From a virus (taxonomy: Duplodnaviria > Caudoviricetes): DNA of 59,292 bases. Numbering within the stretch: the first letter of the stretch is position 1; every line of letters begins with the position of its first letter. Under the pieces are notes generated by a model. It saw only the letters and a list, made by a program, of their open reading frames with translations. It was not told where the DNA came from and did not search any database. The stretch is from positions 1-59,292 of the IMG/VR virus record IMGVR_UViG_3300030708_002074; one strand, written 5' to 3'. Below, piece after piece: positions 36,201 through 56,364 of this stretch. The translations under genes and the position numbers were made by a program.

Positions 36201-36954
36201 TGCAGCCACTACGCTCTTTAACTCTTTTCTTGTTAAGAACTTTTTGAGCGATCAGATCTTTGCGGGGGCTGCCGCTGAAGCAATTAGTGGGGAGGACATG
36301 CAAACTGGTGAGCGCGTCTTTATTGATGGCATCGACAAAGGTTTCGATAAGCACATCAAACAACTAGCTCACATTGGGAAAGAAGCGTTCGCACCAAGGA
36401 CACTTCAAAATGTAGTCAAAGCTATTAGGAATTCTGACGGTGACTTCACAGAGTATCATGACTCTCCAATGGGGCTTGTCTTAAATGAGGTCAACCCAAT
36501 CAGGGCTGCGTTTAGACCGATACCCGTCAATCCTTCAGATAAGTTCAGATCGTTTTTGTTCAAAACAGAACAACGTAGGAAACAAATCCGAGAGAAGTTC
36601 AGGCCGCTATACAAGGATGACCCACTATCGCCGGAAGATATATTTGGTATATACGATGAGGTCTACAAAGACATGGAGTCCTTGAACAAGGAGGTCATGA
36701 ACAAGTTCCAAGCCTTTGAGAAGATAGGAATACCCAAGGGTAAACTCTATGCGATGGCCCGTGGTTCAGGCGGTGGACCTAAGCTGGGCAAGCGGCGATC
36801 TCAACTGCTCCTGCTTGGCTACATGGAACGTCCTGTGCTGGAGGCTAACAAAGTGCGGATCATGCTCAGTGAAAGTCCAGAGATGCAGGAGCGTGTAAGA
36901 GTTTTTGCAGAAGCAGTTAAGAGATACCCTCGCTTTAGCAAGGTTCAGGATTGA
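24226..36954 (+). CDS. Giant (4242 aa) internal virion / polyvalent protein with two zincin-like HExxH domains
   Basis: Single ORF; no Cys seen; LLHEYFHA...QEFV (31729) and LRHELAHK...QERLA (32461); Gly-rich hydrophobic segments near residues 680-820 and near the C-terminus. Confidence 0.75.
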   Translation: MSEEPFNPLDRLNLTGPDGPLSVNKLEVTSYDDWSSGQPSQDPIQAHLGYGDYLREEYIKNKSYNEDVEVSIQSELGEALAAKGLLTNENSDAVVSQIDAYNEPTLDQQVRDMVAHTSLEQDEWHNGNAYLERNEGVKTPEEIERLTENALASVNATRNDVLQAKLDAGEISFGRFTDAQGNSFIKAGDSAMDLPLHEALRRSKAAGGGVSLSDAIGIEQVGLLKVADGMNIPRYKMIQLGEIESLVRSEIANDDNLSIQLEAIGKRMAERDYSSFDHFEEGFRKSVGSTVRTIFEPIIGTLGGSMPSGVAREKAIDQAMLDDIDSTVMRVAKKFNKNPEDVRLAIQEVAIQNAPLKVFKDKDKLALNIRDDGYGLPFVPVAVKLDDDLFEKSLAARTDLTAATKKAIIAERDFFATNHFSNISNILANSDLSKKWLDHLNAGRAAKVSDKEILFSFTSNEDNKPYLDLPIFGDLYLKGSDITRPFSTAFSTVFALSGADWAKKHLANVAEDQNNRREIAELFGGKLGIAQDLATLIPEVTVDIGATALLTRFGGKGVATKAAAVKAPLYASMTKKGVLKALTTNAFRRGVGETTEELAEKLASQKLIRSATSKTALEALEAYNKVNLKNLTVGAIGITAANRSSGATYGSVYNSMLKSGASEEEAHDRALGTGMVAGAVTGLVTGGFSYFGRGGMEDALLSGMSYRNMKTVTERIVQKAPYAKLDGVSDAVFQQAIKDSTKAVLKGNFFGKSFVKAGAEEFAEESIDEFINTFVTDAGLEQDTPFFDHLKHSLYAGTLGGILGAGAPAVNAAARRLRPDLVGDLIQDATLEQNLINDITNRLRESNSSVTADVVRDILTRDLTPDAVRTPSQEDIDAQELAQQDDSEEVKQQAQFLLEIMRSTPEDQIQEEVDAVRKQRRSRKYRSAYAHSSFGDQMAYREDLAQPVIINEKGEVSDLAGVGLTLRTAEGIDEFDYLEMGIAVEDLPRLEKLIRANPDILAMPDSEWATYDPDSGVRDFRDLDLTKDLLSSLTETEYVQLGRLRDRNKVFYAGGDTVYETMPAEAVQQAIIKSKNVENKKPTSQIESDEFFTAYHLWEIVNEESGQQEVYSRGQYLTKKEAEKAAGFKMELGGDPSVEEFQAKSKVKRVDDDGNETIVDHPLLVKKTRGEGKEKPRTPKTVTKYELVREGAVETEEVVENIPATTFKKGNKVKFVFILGDTEFEEGVVDKDYDGDGTVDVADLDGNVFGLDPEQIITGKKQATKTKEKKSADKVIGTFDTEAQAQAAAKKAEGKTFVRKVTKSDNETVSVGDTVSQATDEGGDPVIDKVHEELLDQIQQKNKRIKVRDKDGTPRFTKDEAAKKFAELLEKEESKKQKKELTAQEKFEAILNKINKEENNGSLSPDAAEIAKGKVLGKRLRELTRKNKIEEAKKMVADAISSGKPAYIYDSSTKSLREAKINEKTGKVTFSKKSRPVFVENIAGEKVFITSSRVSGKTVFHKVGEQPADPAGAGVVFRTKENFVKFLEAGLDVTDPVKNVNWAGNVKASELEALNRIVENGLPIIGAMSADSGRTFGVDTTRRNKRPFYNKMRQLVAERIYNLFPVINVRRPVNGKAIYAKTALTAYSPWEFIKTPAGQKLAAKKVRTTSLRPTNIGGVFRAIAEAVPILELDKNNKPKAHKPVAFVDENDEGVFDNDPISMKVLLEEGYSVYFPDDFVGRLNPAFRFAKIGTRQKLVDIRGVGYTGDISSVKQRKAVVGDINVEGFRKKVKFASKFLRRGTAQDVEIDDPNKRGAKTTLRQMLMDLHDTINNAFKAETYDPKDVQVTSIEETFKFRADELKELDASLDRANKRLATGTPEEQEEAARQIETVKARRDRFYENLRVDVLAEAKKIADPEIENRIATYENLLFEQRAIQERLGLAAGEKEVAGNQTQIDANYRIIEQAVFKKEAIARSEGLGVTQDPFVAQNKLQSYLKPKRKQLPLTKGNFELAARQLQVEYAQEILFYQLKLQLADPKISDVEENGAIVIKEEQIEKAINIFLKNVNPTAGANPKAKKGSDYRGLKYDAKGRVTKASKIEFAYYILNSQIDTRVEKVEKGDNYQKVFKRYFEDRILLRDGVSERDRMPSFADVGQKITDRILKQQRLRGSAEKESPFNSERATTPDEVDALNLEMDHFVEMRMGVGEIDALLEGVQMDVVDIINQDPALEQQLDALLKEGPFALSTTDFYLRLNVEEKWSELVAFSRQGNMEGNSAPIAFLQNIRKLNSPAAVKLHRALRLFNIGNLEFGNKNPFILEEQFRAFDSEQILKDEIAALEGEEIDGVVRSRDELLRFADEILDAKKYVRWLTDEVRAIETQKGRVIDDFKARAKASSLHKIIKAYSSHKSFYSGSAVENAIDRAVAIDRNRKVAILLGLKEGRNDTERILNALKKIAVDDSLSESQQNAARILLMKPTYVEFILDQGGGSYAGRTRIKDDGRIEVVLDIAGYNGRGLVDVLLHEYFHASLLDSFSIDINSTSKPQRDARFAISQKIREVRDKVGSNVTTELTDGLKNIQEFVSNMMTNTKFQSYFRGQVGTPEFKKVVQNLFKVLDPQRSNLSKEFKDAFYDVVDLQGYEESTPITLSGLRQEAVNAAVADIEESDAFNASFNAVTGKEGDIDTDTASPLELEDIAVRAAELKQLAGIKIPSEINVAFSTLTGGRVANFDPATNTITFDANNAAIGTLNRGMDSLRAAQMVSKILRHELAHKSAKSALTPEMIQRVIDGSSLQDFKNDIDNYYGKGTPEAEAALARLNDPSKAAREKEVLVQERLADHVERAIGGFSSQQYEAFLMSNPSLLEVVSFYFKSFINKFIRALGGGVGQLTADERIAVNRMLVELRGIELGYRAPSPVFNPDATPQESLNRFLVVATGVDAPEFIEDQGATNLLPQVGADSQIDQPRATASTMATPRELDGVDQEYINLLATANVSPANLQKAQDLFETQAARITLDSFQQLAHSVFVKQLGDGSILKGQNEFNKKKDEFAKLDPTLEVKDEETGETRTIPNEKYQELKEFFEQKEQLAQKMFDSWKVAAKIDQPVATRDRSTEPLPLSERFNFDLNTSEGSPPIPDTDALLKMLGKDLGLKSQDPSLDDDGRLYSSFRAKSRSAKDSEFDAFDFNYTELFDQFNLPVLEVGDVEVYGKGFINKIKKFVNTHSIGLLQPEVHHWLKHRQGMTKGLSQELMLIRSKLKSLTDKVYPDGVPVDENGVSLVQKASGSTEGVFISDEARKRIDDQYEADMVAAWTESHQASLDGTEPATKIKADFDAALEAAKANQELETQIELGRRRDQLKAERNEAIQRIAQDSKELSNAIEKLGEFRNKMSEKLQEIHKESGKYDLKIDQNNDIYLTRAYRMFLDVGYADAVRNSPEYKKERDAAIAYFEGVHLEIEKKIMMQNNPQMTPTEVESAIRDDMQRRQIGKRALEAFISTYDRGSNVNYFGAEEQIKALVDNLKAKKNIPKELRDILGELKDTNLPDNLLRTIMVVGNMAANQSFLNAVAKAGLKTEDNPDGWLFTEEQIAGVDNPSDYAKLVEGSEFNSDFSPLAGLYAKVNTANAFRETFKRHGTIVANPSEQLFENGFKYFRWLTGLSMGLKTMGSIPFYYRNAIGNVLFFGPMQVGYINIFNVKSVGDLVNAGLHKDFAVNFLKESKRNFLGDKAKLDEYIAKLRVLRLVGDESHTNTFKQLMTGERDIDSTLEDFESIIQGKEGDLSLEGKVSKAIGATSRAVSRRGKIVGTDLAPRMAAAMDSFYKMSMFEFELKHLKAAQEHDRKMNPDSTLAKQSDDQLQKDAAQKVLRTMQSYSQAPPIARAASRSVAGALYAPFIRFQADVIRVMVNTPKIALEEINSGNPILKKRGVQRFSGFVQTAGLASLGLPLLLRAIFGISDDEDEALKAAGPAWARYNNPLYYKDDNGKLQMLNFTYTNPFSPVTDSIAATAGAVFNPDATPESAATTLFNSFLVKNFLSDQIFAGAAAEAISGEDMQTGERVFIDGIDKGFDKHIKQLAHIGKEAFAPRTLQNVVKAIRNSDGDFTEYHDSPMGLVLNEVNPIRAAFRPIPVNPSDKFRSFLFKTEQRRKQIREKFRPLYKDDPLSPEDIFGIYDEVYKDMESLNKEVMNKFQAFEKIGIPKGKLYAMARGSGGGPKLGKRRSQLLLLGYMERPVLEANKVRIMLSESPEMQERVRVFAEAVKRYPRFSKVQD

Positions 36955-41276: not shown

Positions 41277-42830
41277 TCAGCCAAGGTCAACTGGAAGCCA
41301 AGTGCCCCAAGGATAGAGCTTCTCTCCCTGCCAGCCGTAGTCCAGCCAGACAACCTTGTAATCATACGGTTCCTCATCAGGCATCTGACTCCAATCAGTC
41401 TCACCATCCGTGAAGAAGAACAATGCACTGATCTCCTGATCAAGTTGCTCCTTCTCGATATAGGTGAACACCTTGTCCAACTCAGTCCACCCGTTCCCGA
41501 GGCTGGTGAGCTTATCAGGAAATGGATCACCGTAGTTAAGGTCCACAACCTCACCGACCTCATCGTCAATGGGGATCAGGATCACTCTTGAGAACTCCTT
41601 GTTAAGAGCAAACTCTTGAGCACGGGCGATCTGATCTTTCAACTCAGACTCACCAATGGAGCCAGACATATCGAATGCGAATGCAACCGTGCCAAGGGTT
41701 GGCTTGTCCCGTGCATCCCCAAGGCATCCCGTTGTGACATACGTATCATGATCGTATGGTGAACCCCACTTGGGATCGGTCATGTCATCCAGCACATCGG
41801 ACAGCAGTTCATCCCAAGGAACGGGATCACCGTGAACCTCATGCGCTGCTTCAGCGGCCCTTGCTTCCTTTAGATCTTTCTCAGATAAGAAAGTCTCACC
41901 CTTCATCTCAGCAATGGAGGAGCTGAGAACTACGGAGTTGATATTCTCTCGCTCCTGCTTCTCGACCTCTTCCAGTGTGGAGCCTTCAGGAATCTCAGGG
42001 GGGAGAACATCACCACCAAGTGAAGAGTCACCATGATCTGATTGGCTGGCACCGATGGAGTTGGCAATGGATTGTCCATCGTCACCGTCCTGCTGGTCGT
42101 CACCACCATCTTGCTGGTCGTCACCACCATCTTGCTGGTCGTCACCGTCCTGCTGGTCATCGTCACCACCATCTTGCTGGTCGTCACCGTCCTGCTGGTC
42201 ATCGTCACTGCCACCTTGCTGGTCGTCATCCTTGGGAGGATCAGGACTCTTCATGAGCAGTTGGTAGATGCCCCTGATTGTCATGTTCCCATACCCACTG
42301 ATCACTTGCTCACGGGGGTCCATGTTCTGCTTCTTGCCTTCAGCAAGGAGAGCATCATGGCAGGGTGTGAACTTACCATGCTCATCCTCAAACTCTATGA
42401 TCGGGAATGGAGTGAAGCCGATCTTAGGTTCAAGGCTAAGGTTCCGCTGGTGGATAATCCAGTTGTGATGGAAGTCCATAGCACGATTCGCATTCGCTCT
42501 GTCCTTCAGATCCGCAAACCTGATAGAGTCCATGCTGAATTTGTGGGAACCTTCATGAACCCAGAGGAATGAAACATTCCCTTCAGGATCATCCAATGCC
42601 TCCAGCCGCGACATCCCCTTGGGGTTGACCAGCACTGAGGTGTTACTGATAGCAGCGAAGTGCCCACATATCTCAGGATAGGGGCACCAATACCACTTCA
42701 TGCCAATGAGACCATCATAGATCTCAGGGGCATACCGCTTGCACCTACGCAACCCAGCAGCAGTCAGGTCATTACCCCTGACTGATGGTGAGAAACGCTC
42801 AAGCACATCTTCTATTTTCTTCTTAGCCAT
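41277..42830 (-). CDS. Metallopeptidase-vWA protein (DUF2201-like)
   Basis: WVHEGSH zincin motif with NRAMD; acidic linker; vWA MIDAS AFDMSGS...GWT...FFTDG. Start ATG 42830. Confidence 0.85.
   Translation of the reverse strand: MAKKKIEDVLERFSPSVRGNDLTAAGLRRCKRYAPEIYDGLIGMKWYWCPYPEICGHFAAISNTSVLVNPKGMSRLEALDDPEGNVSFLWVHEGSHKFSMDSIRFADLKDRANANRAMDFHHNWIIHQRNLSLEPKIGFTPFPIIEFEDEHGKFTPCHDALLAEGKKQNMDPREQVISGYGNMTIRGIYQLLMKSPDPPKDDDQQGGSDDDQQDGDDQQDGGDDDQQDGDDQQDGGDDQQDGGDDQQDGDDGQSIANSIGASQSDHGDSSLGGDVLPPEIPEGSTLEEVEKQERENINSVVLSSSIAEMKGETFLSEKDLKEARAAEAAHEVHGDPVPWDELLSDVLDDMTDPKWGSPYDHDTYVTTGCLGDARDKPTLGTVAFAFDMSGSIGESELKDQIARAQEFALNKEFSRVILIPIDDEVGEVVDLNYGDPFPDKLTSLGNGWTELDKVFTYIEKEQLDQEISALFFFTDGETDWSQMPDEEPYDYKVVWLDYGWQGEKLYPWGTWLPVDLG
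42077..42229 (-). repeat. Intragenic 18/21/24-nt tandem repeat encoding (D)DDQQDG(G) x7
   Basis: Seven TGCTGGTC cores between 42091 and about 42225. Confidence 0.9.
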
Positions 42831-42866
42831 TATGTTGTTTTGTTGTTTTTGCGTTAACACTCGGGA

Positions 42867-42886
42867 GGGTTAACGGGCGTTAACCC
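42867..42886. repeat. Element A palindrome copy 1
   Basis: GGGTTAACGGGCGTTAACCC; contains the TAA stop of 42880-43875. Confidence 0.95.
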
Positions 42887-43875
42887 CACGACATCATGTC
42901 GTCCTTTGCCTCCTCGATAATTGCAGCACCCTGCACGATGAGATCGATTGCCTCTTCCCTTTCAGGCGGTGCGGCATTCTTCATGTCCACATGCTGAATG
43001 CTACTTGCAGCCGTGTTGAACACCTTGCTGAGTTTATCCGCTACAACGTCTGAGATATTGTAGCGTGCCATAAGATCCTTGGCACCAGTGAGCGCATCTT
43101 GAATCTCATCCACCCTTTTCTGAGTCACCCTGCCATTCGGCTCGGTGTGGGACTTGTGGAGTGACTTGGCATTGTCCCGCATGGTCTTCACAAGATACTC
43201 CACCGCATTCAGCATGTTGTTATCTTGCAGCGTCTTGTTGTGATGCACTTGGGCAGCCGTCTTGTTCTTCACCTCATCAGCAATGGCCGTGAGGAATCCA
43301 CTACGTCCAACCTCTTCAGGCTCCGTGTAGAAGATAGCCTCGATACGGAACCAGTTCTTGAGATCATCTACATCAGGGTAGTTCATCTCCCTTGCGTTCA
43401 TACCGAGGCGTGCTTTCGATCTTGCGATCATCGTATCGTATTCCAACTCAAGGTCAGGACGAACCCTGTTGATCTCAGCATTGTGCTTGTCAATCCAATG
43501 CTCCATTGCAGCACGCTCTGAAGCAGCGATGCTGTAACCACCAGCAGCACTTGGCATGAGCCTCCCGATGAAGCCCGCCGCCTTTGCCGCTTCCCCAAGG
43601 TGATCCTTGGGATCGAAGATGGAGTTGAATGATCGTCCGATCTTGGCGATCTTACCAAGGGCACACTTGGGTTCCTCTTGTTTTTTGTAAGGAACAGGTT
43701 TGAACATCGTGTCCCTACAACGGGCACTGGTAGAACCCGTGAGTTCCTTGATCGTGGACGAGGCGTTCTTCAGATTCTTACTATTCTTGGACCATGTTGA
43801 TTTGACCTTCGTCTCAACACGGAGGGTGGAATGGATGGAATTTGGAGCCGACAATTTGTTGAATGATTGTTTCAT
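42880..43875 (-). CDS. DUF3150-like protein (third component of an AAA-vWA module)
   Basis: EYDTMIARSKARLG...NYPDVDDLKNWF pattern; position between the AAA+ and vWA genes. Confidence 0.55.
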   Translation of the reverse strand: MKQSFNKLSAPNSIHSTLRVETKVKSTWSKNSKNLKNASSTIKELTGSTSARCRDTMFKPVPYKKQEEPKCALGKIAKIGRSFNSIFDPKDHLGEAAKAAGFIGRLMPSAAGGYSIAASERAAMEHWIDKHNAEINRVRPDLELEYDTMIARSKARLGMNAREMNYPDVDDLKNWFRIEAIFYTEPEEVGRSGFLTAIADEVKNKTAAQVHHNKTLQDNNMLNAVEYLVKTMRDNAKSLHKSHTEPNGRVTQKRVDEIQDALTGAKDLMARYNISDVVADKLSKVFNTAASSIQHVDMKNAAPPEREEAIDLIVQGAAIIEEAKDDMMSWG

Positions 43876-43904
43876 TTCTCTTTTTACTTTTGATTAAACC
43901 GAAA

Positions 43905-43943
43905 CCGCTTTTGTCAGGCAAGCGGACAGCCGTCAATTCTTTT
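43905..43943 (-). promoter_or_regulatory. Element B copy 5
   Basis: TTGACG-17-CAAAAG; stem CCGCTT/AAGCGG, loop GCCTGACAA. Confidence 0.75.
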
Positions 43944-43957
43944 CTAAAAAAGTAGAT

Positions 43958-43992
43958 AGGGGGAAGGTTAACGGGCGTTAACCCTCCCCCCT
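43958..43992. repeat. Element A copy 2, extended into a longer GC hairpin (possible terminator)
   Basis: AGGGGGAAGGTTAAC-GGGC-GTTAACCCTCCCCCCT; a T6 run follows 6 nt later on the minus strand. Confidence 0.85.
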
Positions 43993-43996
43993 GATG

Positions 43997-45295
43997 CTAC
44001 TTGAGGGAGGAGGCAGTCGCGCACTGAGCAAGATCCACTCCCTTGTATTGGCACTGATCGTAAAGATACTCAGCCACTCCCTTGTGCAAGGCACCAAGGA
44101 GATCGTGAGTGAACCATCCAGTCAGTTGCTTGTTGTGCAAGGCAACCTCCAATCCCTGATCAGAGATGTCCTGCTCCTGACAGAGCAGATCAAGCGCACC
44201 GATACAGAATCGATACTGTTTGTCAGGACTGCTAGGCAAGGCAGTGAGGTCACCGGCCTTGAACTTCTTCACATCTTCAATGATGTGACGAGTGGTTCCG
44301 ATCCACTGAGCACACTTCTCACCCTGCTCTCTTCCGAGGTAGCCAATCAGCATTGCCTCGAAAGCGTCAGAGCGGTAGTCGCCCCAAGGTAACATGGCAG
44401 CACGGGCGGCACGCTCATACGTTCTCCCCGTTGCAGCTTGTTGTCCACGGTAGGACTCAATCTCCTTGAGAGGATCATGCTTCTTACTACGCTTCTCAAA
44501 CTCCAGCCACTGGGTAACCTTGCTGGTCGCACACTTGTGACCGGCAGGATCTTCAATGACTGCTTTGACAGCAAGCACATCCTTCATCCTGAAGGGAAGT
44601 GACTCAAGCATGGACTCCAGACTGAGTGAAGGATCGTTCTTCAGATCAGCAAGGAGAACGTCCAGATCCGGTTTGCTGGTAGTAACCAGCGCCCTGTTCT
44701 GGAATGGAAGCGGAACGATCTTGGAGTTGGCACCATCATAAGGACGGTTACCCGTTCCAACAATCAGCATGTTGTCAGCACACTTGAACCCTCCCAGCAT
44801 CGGACCTTCCCATTCAGTCCCGACTCTGATCGGCATCATGTCATCATCAAGAACAACCTTACCTGCTTTGTTCCTTTTGTATTTAACAACCTCGCCGTCA
44901 GGATGAAACATATCCTGAAACTGATTGTATGAATGAGCCGATCCGTTTCCGATCTCCTCAATATTGTAGATGCCACGGTCACTGCCATGCTCATCGTAGA
45001 GCGGGACATCAACCCTGTTGGGAGCACCCTTGAGAAGTGGACCACCGGGATCTGCTGGGTTGGGGTAGATCTGCCCCCCATACACGGAGTAAGGTTGCTC
45101 CGTGAAGTTAGTCCGTTTGATCCATACCGCTCCAATCACTTGAGCCAGTTTCTTAACCAGCCAACTCTTACCGGAGCCAGCAGCTCCAAGCTGAATGAGG
45201 AAGGGATCTTTCTGGACCATGCACGCAAGTGCAAGGATCAGCATTGTGTGGAGGGACACATCGTTGCCCATACGGGCTTCGTCTTGTGGTTTCAT
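43997..45295 (-). CDS. MoxR-like AAA+ ATPase
   Basis: Walker A GAAGSGKS, Walker B variant IYNIEE, sensor-1 VGTGN, Arg finger PFQNR, ATGRTYE. Confidence 0.85.
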   Translation of the reverse strand: MKPQDEARMGNDVSLHTMLILALACMVQKDPFLIQLGAAGSGKSWLVKKLAQVIGAVWIKRTNFTEQPYSVYGGQIYPNPADPGGPLLKGAPNRVDVPLYDEHGSDRGIYNIEEIGNGSAHSYNQFQDMFHPDGEVVKYKRNKAGKVVLDDDMMPIRVGTEWEGPMLGGFKCADNMLIVGTGNRPYDGANSKIVPLPFQNRALVTTSKPDLDVLLADLKNDPSLSLESMLESLPFRMKDVLAVKAVIEDPAGHKCATSKVTQWLEFEKRSKKHDPLKEIESYRGQQAATGRTYERAARAAMLPWGDYRSDAFEAMLIGYLGREQGEKCAQWIGTTRHIIEDVKKFKAGDLTALPSSPDKQYRFCIGALDLLCQEQDISDQGLEVALHNKQLTGWFTHDLLGALHKGVAEYLYDQCQYKGVDLAQCATASSLK

Positions 45296-45326
45296 TATTA
45301 CGTTTTGTTTTGTTGTTGTTTAGGTT

Positions 45327-45370
45327 GGGTGCCCCTTTTGTCAGGCAAGGGGCCAGCCGTCAATTCTTTT
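45327..45370 (-). promoter_or_regulatory. Element B copy 6
   Basis: AAAAGAA-TTGACG-17-CAAAAG; stem GCCCCTT/AAGGGGC, loop GCCTGACAA. Confidence 0.8.
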
Positions 45371-45387
45371 CGAGAGGGGTTGGTGTA

Positions 45388-45407
45388 GGGTTAACGGGCG
45401 TTAACCT
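45388..45407. repeat. Element A copy 3
   Basis: GGGTTAACGGGCGTTAACCT; overlaps the TAG stop of the upstream gene. Confidence 0.95.
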
Positions 45408-46083
45408 ATTCGGTAAATCCTTTTGTTCCTTTGCGAATGAGGTGAGCAAGATGCTGCTGGTCTTTCTCTTCATCGGTTAGAGCCACAGCAGTGTTGATCA
45501 TGTAGTCATTCAGTATCTCCTCCCAATCAGGACCATAGTGCATCCACCTGCTGGGAAATGGGTTGATGTCATCCAACCTCTGCTTCAAGCGGCTTTCGTC
45601 TACCTGCACATCACACCCATTGATGAATGCAAAGGGTAGGCAGGTAGCTTTGCTGCCGTCCTCTTCATTATTGCCAAAGTCCATTGGGAGAAGGTTCGGT
45701 TTGTAGAACGGTTCATAGGACTCAGTTTGATATCTCTTGAAGATGGCAGTGTGCTTTGCCAGATCGTCATCAAGTTCCTTGTGCATACACTCATGTGCTT
45801 CAATCAACTTGTTCCCCAGACTGTGAGTCTCATCATACGATTCGATCTGCTTCTCGACCTCTTCATCAATCAGCAGATCTATATGCTCAAGATCCCACTC
45901 CGTTGCCCAACTAAAACCCGCCGCCAAGATGGCGAGGATATAGGACAGGGCGATGCCCGTGAGTCCAGCGTAATAGTCCCCATGAAAAATGGGGATCGCC
46001 CAGATGCAGGCTGATGCAATCGACATTACACATGCCGAACGTAACAGCCACATTTTCACTGTGAGTTTAGTTCTCAGTTTCAT
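45406..46083 (-). CDS. Hypothetical two-TM membrane protein
   Basis: Two hydrophobic N-terminal segments followed by an acidic domain; start ATG 46083. Confidence 0.65.
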   Translation of the reverse strand: MKLRTKLTVKMWLLRSACVMSIASACIWAIPIFHGDYYAGLTGIALSYILAILAAGFSWATEWDLEHIDLLIDEEVEKQIESYDETHSLGNKLIEAHECMHKELDDDLAKHTAIFKRYQTESYEPFYKPNLLPMDFGNNEEDGSKATCLPFAFINGCDVQVDESRLKQRLDDINPFPSRWMHYGPDWEEILNDYMINTAVALTDEEKDQQHLAHLIRKGTKGFTE

Positions 46084-46087
46084 TATC

Positions 46088-46180
46088 TCGTTTTGTGTTT
46101 TCGTTTTAACATGCTTGCACTTTGCAAACACAATACCGCCTAGGGTTAACGGGTGTTAACCCTAAGCGGAATGTATCTAC
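46088..46180. repeat. Long repeat copy 1, containing element A copy 4 (46143-46162)
   Basis: 93 bp, 91/93 identical to 46792-46884. Confidence 0.95.
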
Positions 46181-46557
46181 TAACGCACTACCCCAAAGGT
46201 GACGGTGTTACTCTCATGCTCCGCACCACTCCCTTCAGGACCAAAGGAGGTAATGGTGATACAGGCACCGTTCTTTATGGTTTCCACATACCACTTCCCC
46301 TTTCTCTGGCTCACCTTGAAACCCAAATCAAAAAGGTCACTGGCTTGGTTGATTCTCTGCATGGTGAGTTTAGTCCAATGCCCTTTGCCATCTTCATCCG
46401 CACCAGTGTTCAAGGTCACTGCATAATGAGGGTAAGCAGCGAAATCTGATTCAGCAGGTTCAAATGAAACGATATCAGTTTGATACAGGCGGATGATGGT
46501 CTTGCGACCTTCATACCGGATGGATGTAGCTTTCTTATACTGTAATGGAGTTCCCAT
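46180..46557 (-). CDS. Hypothetical early protein
   Basis: 125 aa bracketed by element A copies. Confidence 0.7.
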   Translation of the reverse strand: MGTPLQYKKATSIRYEGRKTIIRLYQTDIVSFEPAESDFAAYPHYAVTLNTGADEDGKGHWTKLTMQRINQASDLFDLGFKVSQRKGKWYVETIKNGACITITSFGPEGSGAEHESNTVTFGVVR

Positions 46558-46595
46558 TTTCTTATGTTGTTTTGTTCTGTTCTGTTTTACGTTGA

Positions 46596-46615
46596 GGGTT
46601 AACGGGTGTTAACCT
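46596..46615. repeat. Element A copy 5
   Basis: GGGTTAACGGGTGTTAACCT; overlaps the TAG stop at 46614. Confidence 0.95.
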
Positions 46616-46790
46616 ACGGGTTGAAAGGCAGTCCCATCTTGCGACCAAGATGGTAACTGATCTCGTCAATCTTTCGCGACAGTTGCTGCCGCGTAGCCGG
46701 TGTGAGGACCGGCCCACTATCAGCCAGCCTCATCTTATAGTTTGCAAGGAGTGCTTTCAGCTCTTCCTTGCTCATATCTTCCAGTTTCAT
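46614..46790 (-). CDS. Hypothetical 58-aa helical-hairpin protein
   Basis: MKLEDMSKEELKALL...GPVLTPATRQQLSRKI, loosely LEM/SAP-like; start ATG 46790. Confidence 0.6.
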   Translation of the reverse strand: MKLEDMSKEELKALLANYKMRLADSGPVLTPATRQQLSRKIDEISYHLGRKMGLPFNP

Positions 46791-46791
46791 T

Positions 46792-46884
46792 TCGTTTTGT
46801 GTTTTCGTTTTAACATGCTTGCACTTTGCAAACACAATACCGCCTAGGGTTAACGGGTGTTAACCCTAGGCAGAATGTATCTAC
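46792..46884. repeat. Long repeat copy 2, containing element A copy 6 (46847-46866)
   Basis: Near-identical to 46088-46180. Confidence 0.95.
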
Positions 46885-47237
46885 CTAGCAATGGTTACGA
46901 TCCCAGCACGGGACTCATCAATCTGGTAAACCAAGGTGGTGTAGTGATTGTCCCTACCCGCGATAACCAGTTTCTTGTTATCGTAATGGTAAACCTTTTT
47001 GTTCACCCAGAAACGGTGACGACCTATGTTCTCTATGAGACGGCGAGCCACATCAAGAGAGATAAGGGTGTGCCGAGCGAAACCCCCGTTGGCGGAAAGA
47101 TGCTCGATAAGATCCTTCACCCACCAATCGTGCATGTCGCACACTTCCTCCCCAATGGGCAGATCGTGGATGTCAATCTTCGGAACGATCCAATGACCGT
47201 TGCTTCCAGATTCCAATAGTCTTTTGAATTTCTTCAT
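46881..47237 (-). CDS. Hypothetical early protein
   Basis: 118 aa bracketed by element A copies. Confidence 0.65.
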   Translation of the reverse strand: MKKFKRLLESGSNGHWIVPKIDIHDLPIGEEVCDMHDWWVKDLIEHLSANGGFARHTLISLDVARRLIENIGRHRFWVNKKVYHYDNKKLVIAGRDNHYTTLVYQIDESRAGIVTIAR

Positions 47238-47263
47238 TACTTTGTTTTTGGTTTTACGTTTGA

Positions 47264-47298
47264 GGGTTAACGGGTGTTAACCCTAAGCGAAATGTATC
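47264..47298. repeat. Element A copy 7 with the right arm of the long repeat
   Basis: GGGTTAACGGGTGTTAACCC followed by TAAGCGAAATGTATC. Confidence 0.95.
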
Positions 47299-47767
47299 AG
47301 GCATAAACAACGTGAGGATGCCCATCCTCATGCGCCTCCAAGGCAAGGTCCCTGCTGCTGGACTCAAGTTCCTTGGCAGAGGATGGCTTCTCAATGTGCC
47401 ACCATTGCGGTCCTTCTGCTCCCTCCATGTAATCATCCACCCACTTTTCCACATGGGTTACGGTCGCGGGAACATAGGACACACGGTTGTCCCATTGGGA
47501 CATATCGCAGTCTCTCCCGCCATATACGATGGCGACCATTTCTTCCTGCGCGTTCTCCTCAATTTTAAAGGCTAGCTTCTCCCTGCGAGAGAGCCTGTCG
47601 GAGAGTGATCTCTTTTCGAGATACTCTCTATTTGATATCCTTCCCAGCTTCCCGCAGAGCCAGCGGGTTTTAATGCTGGGATGGAGGTGCAATTTTCCAT
47701 CCACCACGTTCACCAGACCTTGCCTGATCCACCTAGTTGGGATGTAGGCAGTTGTTTGTTTCTTCAT
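47297..47767 (-). CDS. Hypothetical early protein
   Basis: Start ATG 47767 (MKKQTTAY). Confidence 0.65.
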   Translation of the reverse strand: MKKQTTAYIPTRWIRQGLVNVVDGKLHLHPSIKTRWLCGKLGRISNREYLEKRSLSDRLSRREKLAFKIEENAQEEMVAIVYGGRDCDMSQWDNRVSYVPATVTHVEKWVDDYMEGAEGPQWWHIEKPSSAKELESSSRDLALEAHEDGHPHVVYA

Positions 47768-47787
47768 TATATCGTTTTGTTCTTTTT

Positions 47788-47886
47788 GTTTTAACATGCT
47801 TGCCTTTGCAAACACAATACCGCCTAGGGTTAACGGGTGTTAACCCTAAGCGGAATGTATCGGAAAGGGTTAACGGGCGTTAACCT
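47788..47886. repeat. Long repeat copy 3 (element A copy 8, 47827-47846) plus element A copy 9 (47867-47886)
   Basis: About 74 bp matching copy 1 with a 1-nt deletion; a second palindrome 20 nt away supplies the TAA stop of 47870-48550. Confidence 0.95.
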
Positions 47887-48550
47887 CAGCATGACCAGCG
47901 GCAAGATAAATCAGATCGTCAATCGCCTTCTTCCGGCCCTTGCCTTTCAACTCGGGCAGGTTCTTCCGAAGGATCTTGAGCGCAAGCTCCACGTTTTCCT
48001 TTGGCGTGTTTGCCTTTGCAGGAGCAGGAGCAGGAGCAGGAGCCGGAACAACCGTGGAAGTCACGACTGCCTTTACCTTGTCCTTGTTGTCTTTGTTTCC
48101 TCCGTTCTGCTTGTAGTCGATTTCAAGATCCTGAGATCGGACCTTGCTCCACGTTGCGTCTGACCCTTTGTCAGCCTTGGTGACCTTGGCACCATGTGCC
48201 TTCAACGCATCCATCGCTCTCTGCCATGCTTTCTTCATCCGATTGGAAATGTCATACTGATCTTTCGGGGTTTTGGCGTGGAATCCAGAATAGTCTACCC
48301 AGATTTTCATTGCGGGCCTGAGCAGGGCGTGCATGCCGGTAGCGGCATACGTTTTCACAACGTGGATAGCGGCCGCATCTTCCATGCTGAACTTCTTTGC
48401 ATACTTGAATGACCTTTCTGCAAAGGATTCAATGGACTTGCTAAGTTTGATGCAGGAGGCTCCAAGTTCCTTGAACTCTTTGGAATCCATGCCAGCAACT
48501 CCAAGTTCCTTGAGAACGGCGATTGCGGTAGTATTGATATGCTTACTCAT
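47870..48550 (-). CDS. Hypothetical Lys/Ala-rich protein with PAPAPAPAPA linker (first early gene)
   Basis: 226 aa; (AACA/AAC)n leader. Confidence 0.7.
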   Translation of the reverse strand: MSKHINTTAIAVLKELGVAGMDSKEFKELGASCIKLSKSIESFAERSFKYAKKFSMEDAAAIHVVKTYAATGMHALLRPAMKIWVDYSGFHAKTPKDQYDISNRMKKAWQRAMDALKAHGAKVTKADKGSDATWSKVRSQDLEIDYKQNGGNKDNKDKVKAVVTSTVVPAPAPAPAPAKANTPKENVELALKILRKNLPELKGKGRKKAIDDLIYLAAGHAEVNAR

Positions 48551-48586
48551 CTTTTTCTGTTGTTTGTTGTTTGTTGTTTGTTGGAT

Positions 48587-48618
48587 GGGGCAGGTTAACG
48601 GGTGTTAACCCTCTCCCC
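48587..48618. repeat. Element A copy 10 (extended hairpin)
   Basis: GGGGCAGGTTAAC-GGGT-GTTAACCCTCTCCCC. Confidence 0.9.
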
Positions 48619-53143: not shown

Positions 53144-53436
53144 CCAAGCATCCTAAACCTCCCGTCCCCATAGATCGATGGTTTAAGGATTTAGCTTCTG
53201 TTGAATCTTTACGTGATGTCTTAGACAACGCTTCATTTCAACAAGCGGTCGCTATTTTAAAAGAAGTGGCAGGTCCATCGTTTGGCACGTTACAAGACAA
53301 TGACACAAACAGCTTAAGGCACGCTTGGTATGCAGGTTACCGAGATGCGTTCAACGACCTTCAAAAACTAACCAAACTACCAGTAAACGAAAACAAGAAT
53401 ACCCAGCCTAACGAGTGGCTACACATTGATCAATGA
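53140..53436 (+). CDS. Conserved-position small head-module protein
   Basis: Start moved to ATG 53140; lies between portal and scaffold. Confidence 0.6.
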   Translation: MTKHPKPPVPIDRWFKDLASVESLRDVLDNASFQQAVAILKEVAGPSFGTLQDNDTNSLRHAWYAGYRDAFNDLQKLTKLPVNENKNTQPNEWLHIDQ

Positions 53437-54647
53437 GTGAAGAAACAGCAGCAGTAGAAGAAGCACCACAGGTAGAACAGCTACCTGACGCACAGCCAGA
53501 ACCAAGCCAAGATTCTTTCCTTGATGCTCTGGACAATGCTTTTGCCGGTTTAGACGCGGGCGCGGACTCTATCGAGTCCGTCGATGGGGATTCTGGTGAC
53601 CCCGAACCCGAAGCTGCGCCAGAACCTGAAGCAGAGCAAGCGTCTGAGCCGGAACCGGAACCCGAGTCAGAAAAAGAAGAACCAGAAGCAGAAGAGGTTG
53701 ACACAACATTTGACCCAACAAATGATTTAGATGAGTCCCTTGAAGATGGCTGGACCCCGAAAGCAGCAAACAGGTTCAAACAGCTCAAGTCTGAGCTAAA
53801 AGAAACTGCTTCAGAGCTGGAAAAGATCCGGCTTCTTAACGAGCAGAACGAACAAAAAATCAAGGAGCTTGCTGGTTCAACTGAGAGTTCTGACCTTGAA
53901 GCCCTTCAGGAGAAGCTTAAATCTTATGAGCAAGCGGACATGCTCAATAATCTTGAGCAGACTGAAGCATTTCAGAATGCTGTGACCAGACCCCTCACAG
54001 CTCTCCTTGAGCAATCCTCACAGATTGCAGCCAAGTATGACCTTGATGAGAACGAGATTATTGATCTTATCTCTCTTGATGACCAAGATGCACAAGATGA
54101 AAAGATGTCTGAGCTTCTTGAGTCTGCTTCTGATCGAGATAAAGCCACCCTTTATCAGATCATGAACTCAATTAACCCTATTCTTGAGCACAGACAAAAA
54201 TTGTTTGAGAATGCGGAGCAAGCCATGCAAGAAGCTCAATACCTTGACGAGCAAGTTGCGAACCAAAAAGCTGCCGAGCAGATGGAGCTTAGGAAGAATG
54301 CTACACGGAATGTTGTAGAACGTGTTAAGCAAAAGCTCCCATTCTTGGCTGGTATTGAAGGTTTAGATCTAGCAGCGGTAGAGCAAAAAGCTGCCGAGAA
54401 TGACCCATCTGTAGTTCACCCTGTTGATTTTGCCTATAATTCTGTATCAGCTCAGATCCTTCCGTCAGTGGTGCGTGAATACGTTGTCATGCGGAAAGAA
54501 GTTGAAGAGTTGACAGACAGACTTGCTGAATATGAGGGCGCAGAACCTAAGATGTCTGGGGCCTCTCCCGCAGACTCGACTTCTCCGGTTTCTTCAGACG
54601 ACTCATTTATGGACCGTGTGAACAAAGAGCTTGCTGGCATGGGGTAA
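53433..54647 (+). CDS. Capsid scaffolding protein
   Basis: Very acidic, coiled-coil 404-aa protein directly before the capsid gene. Confidence 0.75.
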   Translation: MSEETAAVEEAPQVEQLPDAQPEPSQDSFLDALDNAFAGLDAGADSIESVDGDSGDPEPEAAPEPEAEQASEPEPEPESEKEEPEAEEVDTTFDPTNDLDESLEDGWTPKAANRFKQLKSELKETASELEKIRLLNEQNEQKIKELAGSTESSDLEALQEKLKSYEQADMLNNLEQTEAFQNAVTRPLTALLEQSSQIAAKYDLDENEIIDLISLDDQDAQDEKMSELLESASDRDKATLYQIMNSINPILEHRQKLFENAEQAMQEAQYLDEQVANQKAAEQMELRKNATRNVVERVKQKLPFLAGIEGLDLAAVEQKAAENDPSVVHPVDFAYNSVSAQILPSVVREYVVMRKEVEELTDRLAEYEGAEPKMSGASPADSTSPVSSDDSFMDRVNKELAGMG

Positions 54648-54693
54648 TATAAATCCACAGGCACCCCTCAAGTGAGGGCACCCCATCCTGCAA

Positions 54694-54741
54694 ACCCCCC
54701 TATCGGTTTCTTTGTTTTCCGGTAGGGGGGTGTTCTTTTTT
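54694..54741 (+). terminator. Intrinsic terminator after scaffold
   Basis: ACCCCCCTATCGG...CCGGTAGGGGGGT followed by GTTCTTTTTT. Confidence 0.75.
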
Positions 54742-54746
54742 CATTG

Positions 54747-54775
54747 TTGACATTTTTAATAAAATGCTTAAGTAT
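54747..54775 (+). promoter_or_regulatory. Candidate promoter for the capsid gene
   Basis: TTGACA at 54747; -10 ambiguous (TTAAGT, TAAGTA or AAGTAT). Confidence 0.5.
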
Positions 54776-54780
54776 GGCGG

Positions 54781-54940
54781 CATAAGCGAAGGTTGCTCTA
54801 GCCACAAATAGTTCTACACCGCTTCCCATTGGGCTGAGTTCCAATACACACATAGATTTGATCCGGTTGCTCTAGCCACAAATAGTTCTACGAAAGGTCA
54901 ATCGCCCTACCCTTTTTTAACCTGCCCGATAACAGGGCGC
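54781..54940 (+). ncRNA. Candidate structured 5' leader with a tandem 27-nt motif
   Basis: GGTTGCTCTAGCCACAAATAGTTCTAC at 54791-54817 and 54865-54891, each closed by a different stem. Confidence 0.55.
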
Positions 54941-54970
54941 ATTTCTTTATCTATTTAACACCACAATCAA

Positions 54971-56296
54971 ATGGCTGGACAATTCGCAAACAGCACTGCT
55001 GCGATTGATAACATTCTGACTCAGGAAGCTAATCGTATCGGTGACGACATTCACAAGGCAACCCTCCACACTTCACCGTGGATGGACCTTGTTAAACAGA
55101 GCGCATTCCCCGAGGGAATGGGCTATGAGCTTAACACTCTTATTTACGACAGGGCACTTCCACTGAAGAGCGGAACTCTCGGCACAGACCCTGTTCTTGG
55201 AGTCAACTGGAAAGCACTTCAGACTGGCACAGCCAGTAGTGCTGTTGGTTTCACTGACGGGCAGACTACCGCTAGTCAGGCTCTTAGCGCCGAAGGCAAA
55301 GCAACCATCGACTTCACCAAGAAGCTCAAAAGCTACAGCCTGAAAAAAGCTGTGGTCGAGTCTCCTCGGCTTAACGTCGAAGACCTACGTTATGCTGCTC
55401 ACCGTAATGATCAGCTCAGTGCGATCATGGACCTCATGCAAGAGTCCGTGCGTCACACTTGGGAGAATCGTTACCGCGACGAGTATGACCGCCTTGCTGA
55501 TAACTGCGTTCTTTGTAAGTCTGCTAGCACGACCTTTATCTCTTCTGTAGAGGACAAGCAGTCGTTCGTAGAAGACACTACCGATGGTTTGGCACAAGCT
55601 GGGTCTACCGTAAAGACTGGTGATCTTGACGCCAACAATGATGGAACTGGAGAACTGGAGCCTGATGCTAACATCTCCAACGCCATCATGGACAAGATTT
55701 ACTTTAAGCTTGTCCGCGCTGGCGCAGGTGCGAAGGCTTACGGTCGTGAGAACGGTCGTCCGATCTTCTCTGTGGTCATGTCTTCTGAGGCTTCTTATCA
55801 GCTCCAGACTGAATCCGGCTTCCGTGATGATGTCCGCTACAACAACGCTAAGGTTGGCGAGCTGATCGCACCCCTTGGAGTTGAGAAGTCCTTCCGTGGT
55901 TTCTACCACTTGGTTGACGATCTCACCACTCGTTATAAGAGTCGCGGAGGAGAGGCAAACACTCTCGTCAGAGTCGATCCTTATACTGTATCTGGTGGAG
56001 TTGTTATCCCGAACGCAGATTACGAAAGTGCTGAGTTTGAAGCCGCTTACGTTCTGGTAGACGATGTGATGGAGTCTTTGATCCCAGCACCCACAGCAAC
56101 TGCTCCGGGGCTGACCTTCGATCCCGTCAACTTTAAGGGCGAGTTTCGCTGGACCAACATCGCGGACGCAGAAATCAATCCAGATAAAACGATTGGTTTC
56201 TTCCGTGGCATCATGGCTAGTGCATCCAAGCCGATTAAGACTCAGTTTGGTTACGTTGTTATCTTCAAGAGAGACACCTCTACTGTTGCTGCCTAG
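54971..56296 (+). CDS. Major capsid protein
   Basis: 441 aa after the scaffold, with its own promoter and terminator and a strong C/T-ending codon bias. Confidence 0.8.
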   Translation: MAGQFANSTAAIDNILTQEANRIGDDIHKATLHTSPWMDLVKQSAFPEGMGYELNTLIYDRALPLKSGTLGTDPVLGVNWKALQTGTASSAVGFTDGQTTASQALSAEGKATIDFTKKLKSYSLKKAVVESPRLNVEDLRYAAHRNDQLSAIMDLMQESVRHTWENRYRDEYDRLADNCVLCKSASTTFISSVEDKQSFVEDTTDGLAQAGSTVKTGDLDANNDGTGELEPDANISNAIMDKIYFKLVRAGAGAKAYGRENGRPIFSVVMSSEASYQLQTESGFRDDVRYNNAKVGELIAPLGVEKSFRGFYHLVDDLTTRYKSRGGEANTLVRVDPYTVSGGVVIPNADYESAEFEAAYVLVDDVMESLIPAPTATAPGLTFDPVNFKGEFRWTNIADAEINPDKTIGFFRGIMASASKPIKTQFGYVVIFKRDTSTVAA

Positions 56297-56321: not shown

Positions 56322-56364
56322 ATCCCGAACCCTGAATGACCCTTCGGGGTTCGGGATTTCTTTT
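56322..56364 (+). terminator. Intrinsic terminator after the capsid gene
   Basis: ATCCCGAACCCTGAA...TTCGGGGTTCGGGAT followed by TTCTTTT. Confidence 0.85.

Follow-up and report, generated by a model that had tools for sequence, protein, structure and literature searches.

The window examined here is the whole stretch of DNA of a single virus record (IMGVR_UViG_3300030708_002074; 59,292 bases, estimated to be 98% complete) from an uncultured marine phage. Just upstream of the major capsid protein gene, it contains an exact 27-nt direct repeat at positions 54791–54817 and 54865–54891 (74 nt from start to start, with 47 nt between the copies), as had been claimed in an earlier reading of the letters alone (hereafter, the sequence-only reading). 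This repeat is the invariant core of an RNA module, two copies of which sit in the predicted 5′ leader of the major-capsid mRNA. We class the module as a new RNA family of a known general kind, the cis-acting structured leader; its stem-enclosed, usually doubled pseudoknot is unlike any family tested.

The features of this locus lie on the plus strand. Upstream, among the head-morphogenesis genes, an acidic, scaffold-like open reading frame (ORF) of 404 amino acids (53433–54647) belongs to a unit ended by an intrinsic-terminator-like hairpin and a T run (54694–54740), which was detected with an inverted-repeat search and has 13-nt arms that are 92% complementary. A terminator-like hairpin was recognized by eye at the same place in relatives. 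A sigma-70-like promoter sequence follows, consisting of TTGACA at 54748–54753, a 16–17-nt spacer, and a −10-like TAAGTAT/AAGTAT at 54769–54775. The capsid gene, which encodes 441 amino acids, extends from 54971 to 56296, and directly past it lies a strong intrinsic terminator (56322–56363; 15-pair stem and TTCTTTT), 13 nt before the next ATG. Because of this terminator, the genes beyond the capsid gene would need read-through, and no promoter-like site was listed in the gap between the capsid gene and the next gene. The capsid gene is a self-contained unit composed of terminator, promoter, leader, gene, and terminator.

From the positions of TTGACA (54748–54753), AAGTAT (54770–54775), and the ATG at 54971, the leader is predicted to be approximately 190 nt long, with transcription probably starting at around 54782–54784, 1–3 nt before the closing stem of the first module. 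Of 59 distinct upstream regions, 55 had a TTGACA-like box 40–53 nt before the first core, and in 42 it was exactly TTGACA. The general consensus promoter scan omitted the TTGACA/AAGTAT pair because its rule needs a better −10 box. The sequence-only reading had named a transcription start past the repeats as a possible objection; the conserved promoter sits upstream of the repeats, the start itself being a prediction.

Each module consists of a closing stem, P1, around a core with two short stems, S1 and S2. Module 1 (54784–54824) is closed by P1a, in which AAGCG (54784–54788) pairs with CGCTT (54820–54824), as proposed. Its core (54791–54816) is made up of S1 (54791–54793 with 54801–54803), loop 1 (TGCT, 54794–54797), S2 (54798–54800 with 54809–54811), loop 3 (54804–54808), and a TTCTA tail (54812–54816). 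Module 2 (54855–54903) has the same core at 54865–54890 (S1, 54865–54867 with 54875–54877; loop 1, 54868–54871; S2, 54872–54874 with 54883–54885; loop 3, 54878–54882; tail, 54886–54890), and its closing stem, P1b, is the unrelated one that had been described for the second copy: GATTTGATC (54855–54863) pairs with GGTCAATC (54896–54903) through eight pairs and one bulged T. The sequence-only reading had listed two additional hairpins. The ATTGG/CCAAT hairpin between the modules is present at 54828–54845 (ATTGGGC-TGA-G-TTCCAAT) but is optional in relatives. Downstream, CGCCCT (54903–54908) and AGGGCG (54934–54939) can pair, but this pairing is an alternative to a third, G+C-rich hairpin at 54923–54939 (TGCCC/GGGCG, with a T-rich stretch after it), and it too is optional in relatives, as is the third hairpin. 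The stretch before the ATG, 54940–54970, is a G-poor translation-initiation region without a Shine–Dalgarno sequence.

The repeat is confined to this locus. When up to three mismatches were allowed, only the two copies were matched on both strands of the window, and none of 100 dinucleotide-preserving shuffles yielded any match. In a scan of the entire window with a covariance model of the module, made with filters off, the copies scored 52.3 bits (module 2) and 41.7 bits (module 1), and the next-best hit was 9.3 bits (E = 4). The perfect identity of the two copies is an exception among leaders: only four of 44 distinct combinations paired identical copies within a leader. Since 0.84 such combinations were expected (8 of 2000 shuffles), this hints mildly at concerted evolution. 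Folded as a single sequence, the leader (54781–54975) was no more stable than its shuffles (z = +0.89, not significant), and the structural claims below therefore rest on the comparison of genomes, not on thermodynamics.

The 441-amino-acid protein had no Pfam or PHROG match, and the portal-sized and scaffold-like ORFs and their neighbors were likewise without a useful family. No relative was found among 50,697 phage records, either by blastn of 54300–55400 or by tblastn of the protein. For this reason, the capsid assignment rests on the predicted fold. An AlphaFold model built with 37 homologues (predicted local distance difference test score 60; predicted template modeling score 0.63) had 167 Foldseek matches with an E value of 0.001 or better, the best of which was the phage N4 capsid (9e99_A; E = 3.8e-10; template modeling scores 0.45/0.50), followed by those of Moo19 and DEV. 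The product is thus predicted to be an HK97-fold major capsid protein closest to the N4-type capsids, and the label of a major-capsid leader, already used in the sequence-only reading, is justified at the level of the fold. Two RNA libraries, one a marine metatranscriptome and the other prepared with oligo-dT, yielded contigs that matched the capsid ORF at 55016–55688 with less than 95% likeness. These contigs represent relatives of the window phage, and DNA carry-over is possible; the two RNA libraries were among 24 runs, at a word share of 0.05.

The motif was conserved in front of the capsid gene in relatives. A search with the capsid protein identified ten viral loci with 31–86% identity, and all nine loci with at least 53% identity carried two copies of the motif upstream, with differing flanking stems. 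An exact IUPAC pattern of the core matched 67 viral contigs, of which 62 had a capsid homologue directly downstream on the same strand and five were cut there. Among the cellular genomes (one per species, 185,579 species), in which only the canonical pattern was searched, it matched five contigs of 3–29 kb binned into metagenome-assembled genomes (MAGs), and all five matches precede a capsid homologue. The MAGs concerned were assigned to Opitutae (two), Verrucomicrobiales, Blastopirellula, and Acidimicrobiaceae, which may hint at the host or reflect mis-binning. Across 69 sources totaling 713 kb, the covariance model gave 117 hits; as read from the hit table, each source had one or two, which coincided with the sites matched by the pattern. 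Exactly two copies were present in 59 of 61 non-identical leaders.

Because a pattern search selects for an intact core, we also took a sample defined by the protein only, comprising the best 80 (52–86% identity) of 152 relatives found with the capsid alignment. Their leaders were parsed with sequence anchors only, and complementarity was not imposed. Two modules were found in 50 of these relatives and one module in 20, and ten could not be parsed. Of the unparsed ten, two had less than 210 nt of upstream sequence and five fitted a third variant of the module with the same topology (by an ad hoc pattern); L159 and L162 showed this third variant by eye, which left L158 unassigned. A pattern for the distant-clade variant described below found no contigs beyond three already in the set. 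The motif and its stems were present in relatives; their absence there would have counted against the sequence-only reading.

The closing stem was examined in 106 distinct units, for which the 18-nt flanks were folded with the core kept unpaired, and 3′ flanks swapped between leaders served as the control. At least five cross-flank pairs formed in 99 of the 106 units, with 79 different 5′ strands, and the mean energy of P1 was −6.66 kcal/mol, against −2.39 kcal/mol for swapped flanks (Mann–Whitney p = 7e-39). The seven failures include weak stems with one mismatch. RNAalifold, applied to a MAFFT alignment of 34 leaders, returned the two 5-bp hairpins alone; it missed P1 because the offsets of this stem vary, and constrained folds with swapped-flank controls were therefore used. 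The comparison of relatives bore out the proposal of a tandem RNA motif in which a constant core is enclosed by variable closing stems.

Short motifs recurred in the flanks of the cores. ATAG was seen in the 22 nt before core 2 in 13 of 39 distinct flanks, in most cases 11–13 nt from the core (54852–54856 in the window), and before core 1 in 11 of 46 distinct flanks. Of the 43 distinct 3′ flanks of module 2, 20 contained (G/A)TTC. In place of P1, a pairing between UAGA and the UCUA of the tail could form.

Covariation indicates that the core folds as an H-type pseudoknot and not as a 5-bp hairpin. The core spans 26 nt, and the module, including P1, approximately 45 nt. In the numbering of the core, S1 is formed by G1-G2-U3 and G11-C12-C13, and S2 by C8-U9-A10 and U19-A20-G21; the order of the elements is S1, a loop 1 that ends in an invariant GCU, S2, a loop 2 of 0–2 nt, an A-rich loop 3, and the tail. 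Loop 3 is 5–9 nt long, or 15–25 nt where a hairpin has been inserted, and the tail was UUCUA in 49 of 54 units and UUCAG in five. Among 49 distinct canonical cores, positions 10 and 19 were A-U in 38 and G-C in ten and were never mixed, the one remaining core being a variant with a one-base deletion; one core exchanged U9-A20 for C-G. The third pair of S1 in the canonical cores was U.G, C-G, U-A, or G-C, and the second pair was A-U once; a further count of the third pair gave U.G in 36, C-G in 11, and U-A in five.

Both stems of the pseudoknot were borne out by counts across leaders. In 34 diverse leaders, 98.8% of the cells in S1 and S2 were paired and five of the 12 pairs changed on both sides; none of 500 shuffles reached the observed values, and slid controls were 11–51% paired. 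In the protein-only sample, S2 was fully paired in 54 of 56 distinct units; 2000 shuffles averaged 35.2 such units and never exceeded 42. The paired units comprised seven versions of S2 (CUA/UAG, 37; CUG/CAG, 6; CCA/UGG, 4; CCG/CGG, 3; UCG/CGA, 2; UUG/CAA, 1; UUA/UGA, 1), and errors of parsing apparently account for the two units that remain, through a second UUCUA in L134 and a spurious match in L145/L150. In a more distant clade, S2 was CUGA/UCAG and GUGA/UCAC. The hairpin GGUUG-CUC-UAGCC that had first been proposed for the core was therefore only partly upheld: its lower three pairs correspond to S1 and were supported, whereas its upper two compete with the covarying S2. The fold was assigned to the capsid-sense strand because the commonest third pair of S1 is a U.G wobble, which would be C.A on the other strand.

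Two further elements were observed in the leaders of relatives. The third variant of the module (L123, L126, L139, L144, L147, L159, and L162) is located 100–175 nt upstream of the capsid ATG and has a four-pair S1 (GACC/GGUC or GUCC/GGAC), a UGC loop 1, and a CGCUA tail; its S2 is CAGU/ACUG, except for CAGU/GCUG in L159 and CAAU/AUUG in L162. The single-module relatives, which often have the hairpin insert in loop 3, carry a second, different element approximately 60–130 nt upstream of the capsid ATG (L107, L114, L122, L125, L133, L145, L146, L149, L165, and L168). By eye, this element is an H-type pseudoknot with a stem A of GAAGC/GCUUC (GGA-GC/GCUCC in L122) and a stem B of GUCGC/GCGAC, with the variants GUUGC/GCAAC, GUCGU/ACGAC, and AUCGC/GCGAU.

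Outside the modules, several parts of the leader varied. The start-to-start spacing of the copies in relatives was 54–90 nt, with linkers of 28–63 nt, and the distance from module 2 to the AUG was 50–122 nt. The middle hairpin was missing in ten of the 49 distinct linkers listed, which were the short ones (28–37 nt). Where present, it followed the pattern G-R-R-C, a 3-nt loop, G, one bulged base, and Y-Y-C, and compensatory changes were seen by eye (GGG/UCC, GAG/CUC, GGA/UCC, and GGG/CCC). The whole stretch past module 2 folded at −6 kcal/mol or weaker in seven of 57 distinct leaders, and a hairpin intervened in the others. The last 40 nt before the AUG contained 11% G in 53 distinct leaders, and none of these leaders had GGAG, GAGG, AGGA, or AAGG within 20 nt of the ATG. 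By eye, a Shine–Dalgarno sequence was absent at all 34 inspected ORF starts of the window, where the upstream regions were A/C/T-rich; because the other 33 ORFs also lack one, its absence is a property of the host system and is not specific to the capsid gene. Pairing of the UUCUA tail with a UAGAA near the start codon was considered as a general mechanism and rejected, since it was available in only eight of the 53 leaders.

The module had no counterpart among known families. With Rfam 15, the region 54000–55600 of the window gave six chance-level hits at E values up to 10, all far below the gathering thresholds and none on the repeats, and the leaders of 18 diverse relatives gave two chance-level hits at E values up to 1. 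The Rfam check proposed in the sequence-only reading therefore returned no family for the window or for these 18 relatives, and no preQ1 model matched in either. A description of the motif was not found in the texts covered by full-text literature searches. PMC10690425 reports 8,495 candidate structured RNAs from IMG/VR, the collection to which the window also belongs; five candidates upstream of a major capsid protein domain are mentioned in its main text, and its supplementary alignments may already include the motif.

We tentatively read the modules as a docking site, acting in cis, for a phage nucleic-acid-binding protein or for the host 30S subunit or its protein S1, through which translation of the capsid gene would be controlled. 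Host polymerase would transcribe the leader from the sigma-70-like promoter, placing P1 of module 1 within a few nucleotides of the 5′ end. The folded pseudoknots would expose the unpaired GCU of loop 1 and the UUCUA tail, and a conserved macromolecule, either the phage protein or 30S/S1, would dock on them after transcription. Once docked, it would govern access to the 50–122 nt of G-poor, unstructured RNA without a Shine–Dalgarno sequence ahead of the AUG, and the output of capsid protein would be controlled. We infer both the existence and the identity of this partner, as well as the sign of its effect (repression or enhancement). The variable distance to the AUG, together with a downstream hairpin that relatives can do without, fits a docking site better than a switching platform, and the weak single-sequence fold is to be expected if a partner stabilizes the RNA. 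The placement of the motif also supports an operator, as it is the sole site in the genome and always precedes a capsid homologue where downstream sequence is present.

Two known systems resemble such an arrangement in part. In E. coli, the rpsA leader is a structured initiation region without a Shine–Dalgarno sequence, to which the ribosome is recruited through S1. The capsid leader resembles it in that structured elements are followed by single-stranded, non-Shine–Dalgarno RNA before a gene expected to be very highly expressed, and differs from it in having pseudoknots, other conserved nucleotides, and a long and variable distance to the AUG. The nearest worked example is the T4 gene 32 operator (PMC3014915), in which a pseudoknot 67 nt upstream of the start codon nucleates cooperative binding; the bound protein spreads over an A+U-rich leader that lacks structure and reaches the ribosome-binding site. 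The likeness lies in a small H-type pseudoknot tens of nucleotides before a phage start codon, followed by unstructured, G-poor RNA that continues into the initiation region. The module described here, in contrast, is doubled, enclosed by a stem, and located before a capsid gene and not before the gene of the binder itself, and it has no sequence likeness to the T4 operator. Rfam has no model of the gene 32 operator with which the module could be compared (PMC10690425).

Several observations weigh against a docked partner acting on translation. No single-strand-binding or RNA-binding protein was recognized among 36 scanned ORFs of the window with PHROGs and Pfam. The contigs from the RNA libraries fall on the capsid ORF and none on the leader. 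The downstream gene encodes a capsid protein and not a nucleic-acid-binding protein, and the analogy with gene 32 is therefore architectural only. The strands differed little: the energies of P1 on the sense and antisense strands showed a small difference (Wilcoxon p = 0.02), and G.U pairs in P1 did not discriminate between them (91 sense and 116 antisense). Finally, the core hardly varies even where the identity of the capsid protein falls to approximately 52%. A co-evolving phage protein would be expected to let the RNA drift more, and this near-invariance therefore favors a host machine or a small ligand.

If the conserved partner were a small ligand, the leader would be a tandem riboswitch, in which each pseudoknot would bind a small molecule or ion as an aptamer and the pair would give a sharper response that gates capsid synthesis. 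We consider this unlikely, although several features recommend it. Compact H-type pseudoknots with an A-rich loop 3, invariant unpaired nucleotides inside freely covarying stems, a fold that is weak without its partner, and a loop 3 that tolerates hairpin inserts of 15–25 nt speak for an aptamer, and near-invariance over deep protein divergence resembles that of ligand-constrained aptamers. The class-I preQ1 riboswitch is a small H-type pseudoknot of similar size (PMC7038950). Riboswitches of this general type share with the module a length of approximately 26–34 nt, a third loop rich in A, unpaired nucleotides that do not vary, and a fold that is weak without a partner. Unlike the class-I preQ1 riboswitches, however, the module has no Rfam match, precedes a capsid gene and not queuosine or preQ1 genes, lacks an expression platform, has a loop 2 of 0–2 nt, and possesses in addition a closing helix and a constant tail on its 3′ side.

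The doubling of the module also recalls tandem riboswitches of the glycine type, in which two homologous structured modules lie in series in one leader. In contrast to that type, 20 of the 80 protein-defined relatives have a single module, the linkers range from 28 to 63 nt, and there was no evidence of contact between the modules. The motif was found in only one gene context and only in phage-like DNA, all five MAG contigs found with the canonical pattern having it before a capsid homologue, and no Rfam riboswitch model matched. The absence of a consistent expression platform further weakens a riboswitch, since the downstream hairpin is weak or absent in seven of 57 leaders, the distance to the AUG varies over 50–122 nt, and there is no Shine–Dalgarno sequence to sequester. 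A riboswitch class restricted to phages, in which the ligand would report the state of the infected cell (e.g., nucleotide or replication status) and gate capsid synthesis, is similarly improbable; it could perhaps act through the access of the ribosome or Rho to the C-rich leader and not through a classical hairpin platform.

Stem-loops at the 5′ terminus stabilize bacterial mRNAs, and the modules might accordingly be a passive stabilizer that shields an abundant message from 5′-end-dependent decay, with no specific partner. The predicted start only 1–3 nt before P1a, the fixed distance between the −35 box and module 1, and the organization of the gene as a self-contained, high-output unit between terminators are consistent with this role. 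We nevertheless regard it as quite unlikely, because a stable stem would suffice for it, and the conservation of the core at the level of individual nucleotides, the covarying pseudoknot, and the constant GCU and UUCUA would be left unexplained; moreover, P1a in the window has just five pairs and the leader as a whole is not unusually stable.

A role in transcription was also weighed. The HK022 put RNA binds the elongating polymerase, and nut loads a factor on the polymerase. The nascent modules might similarly bind the polymerase, or load a factor on it, and so carry it through terminators. The likeness to HK022 put and lambda nut is that of a promoter-proximal, two-part structured RNA able to act at a distance; unlike them, the leader has one site per genome and pseudoknots in place of plain stem-loops, and the comparison is one of layout only. 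Processive antitermination would account for two stem-closed modules directly past a promoter, for the variable distance to the gene, and for the lack of a local platform, none being needed, and its target would be the strong terminator that ends 13 nt short of the next gene, a gap for which no promoter-like site was listed. However, that terminator more simply keeps the output of the capsid gene above that of the downstream genes, a function that antitermination would defeat, and the motif has no second site in the genome, making this a very unlikely explanation.

Release of the modules from the leader as a free non-coding RNA, acting in assembly or packaging or as a decoy for a host RNA-binding protein, is highly improbable: the setting among head-morphogenesis genes (a portal-sized ORF, the acidic scaffold-like ORF, and the capsid gene) and the expected great abundance of the RNA would suit such a role, and in some lineages (L048 and L050) the third hairpin and T run could end a short RNA, but in several others (L014 and L030) nothing separates the modules from the capsid ORF. 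The least credible proposal is an element acting at the level of DNA, either an operator pair for a DNA-binding regulator or a hairpin promoter such as those of the N4 virion polymerase (a 5-pair stem with a 3-nt loop), as suggested by the direct repeat just past a promoter, the 5-pair, 3-nt-loop hairpin within the core, and the N4-like capsid fold; against it, pairing-preserving changes in P1 and a covarying S2 have no role in duplex recognition, the commonest S1 pair, U.G, becomes C.A on the other strand, as do both wobble pairs of the core hairpin, the spacing of the copies ranges over 54–90 bp and so does not preserve helical phase, and the motif stands only before the capsid gene, with another perfect hairpin, present in ten copies, fitting hairpin promoters better.

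The covariation-backed family is widespread, with at least 67 viral contigs identified by pattern and 152 capsid relatives found by protein search, and it heads what is expected to be the most heavily expressed late message of uncultured marine phages that have a predicted N4-like capsid and no Shine–Dalgarno sequences. Among tailed phages, it would be a novelty for a pseudoknot to control a capsid gene after transcription. If the modules bind a ligand, they would constitute a riboswitch whose sole target is a viral structural gene; if they recruit the ribosome, they would bear on the initiation of translation in hosts that make no use of Shine–Dalgarno pairing. The module is small and its invariant nucleotides are clear, which makes tests of its structure and partner, and tests with reporters, straightforward.

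Two other features of the genome were observed. A 4242-amino-acid ORF on the plus strand (24226–36954) had no Pfam hit and no sequence hit in the PDB (best E = 0.17); from its size and the N4-like capsid, our guess is that it encodes a giant protein packaged in the virion, for example a virion RNA polymerase. On the minus strand, the region 42868–48610 contains the ten perfect 18-nt hairpins mentioned above, GGTTAAC(A/G)CCCGTTAACC, each with a 7-pair stem and a 4-nt loop, where none would be expected by chance. Three of them lie 10–30 nt before ORF starts (41277–42860, 45406–46131, and 47297–47815), and, given the N4-like capsid, these hairpins may be N4-type hairpin promoters, or terminators, of an early region.

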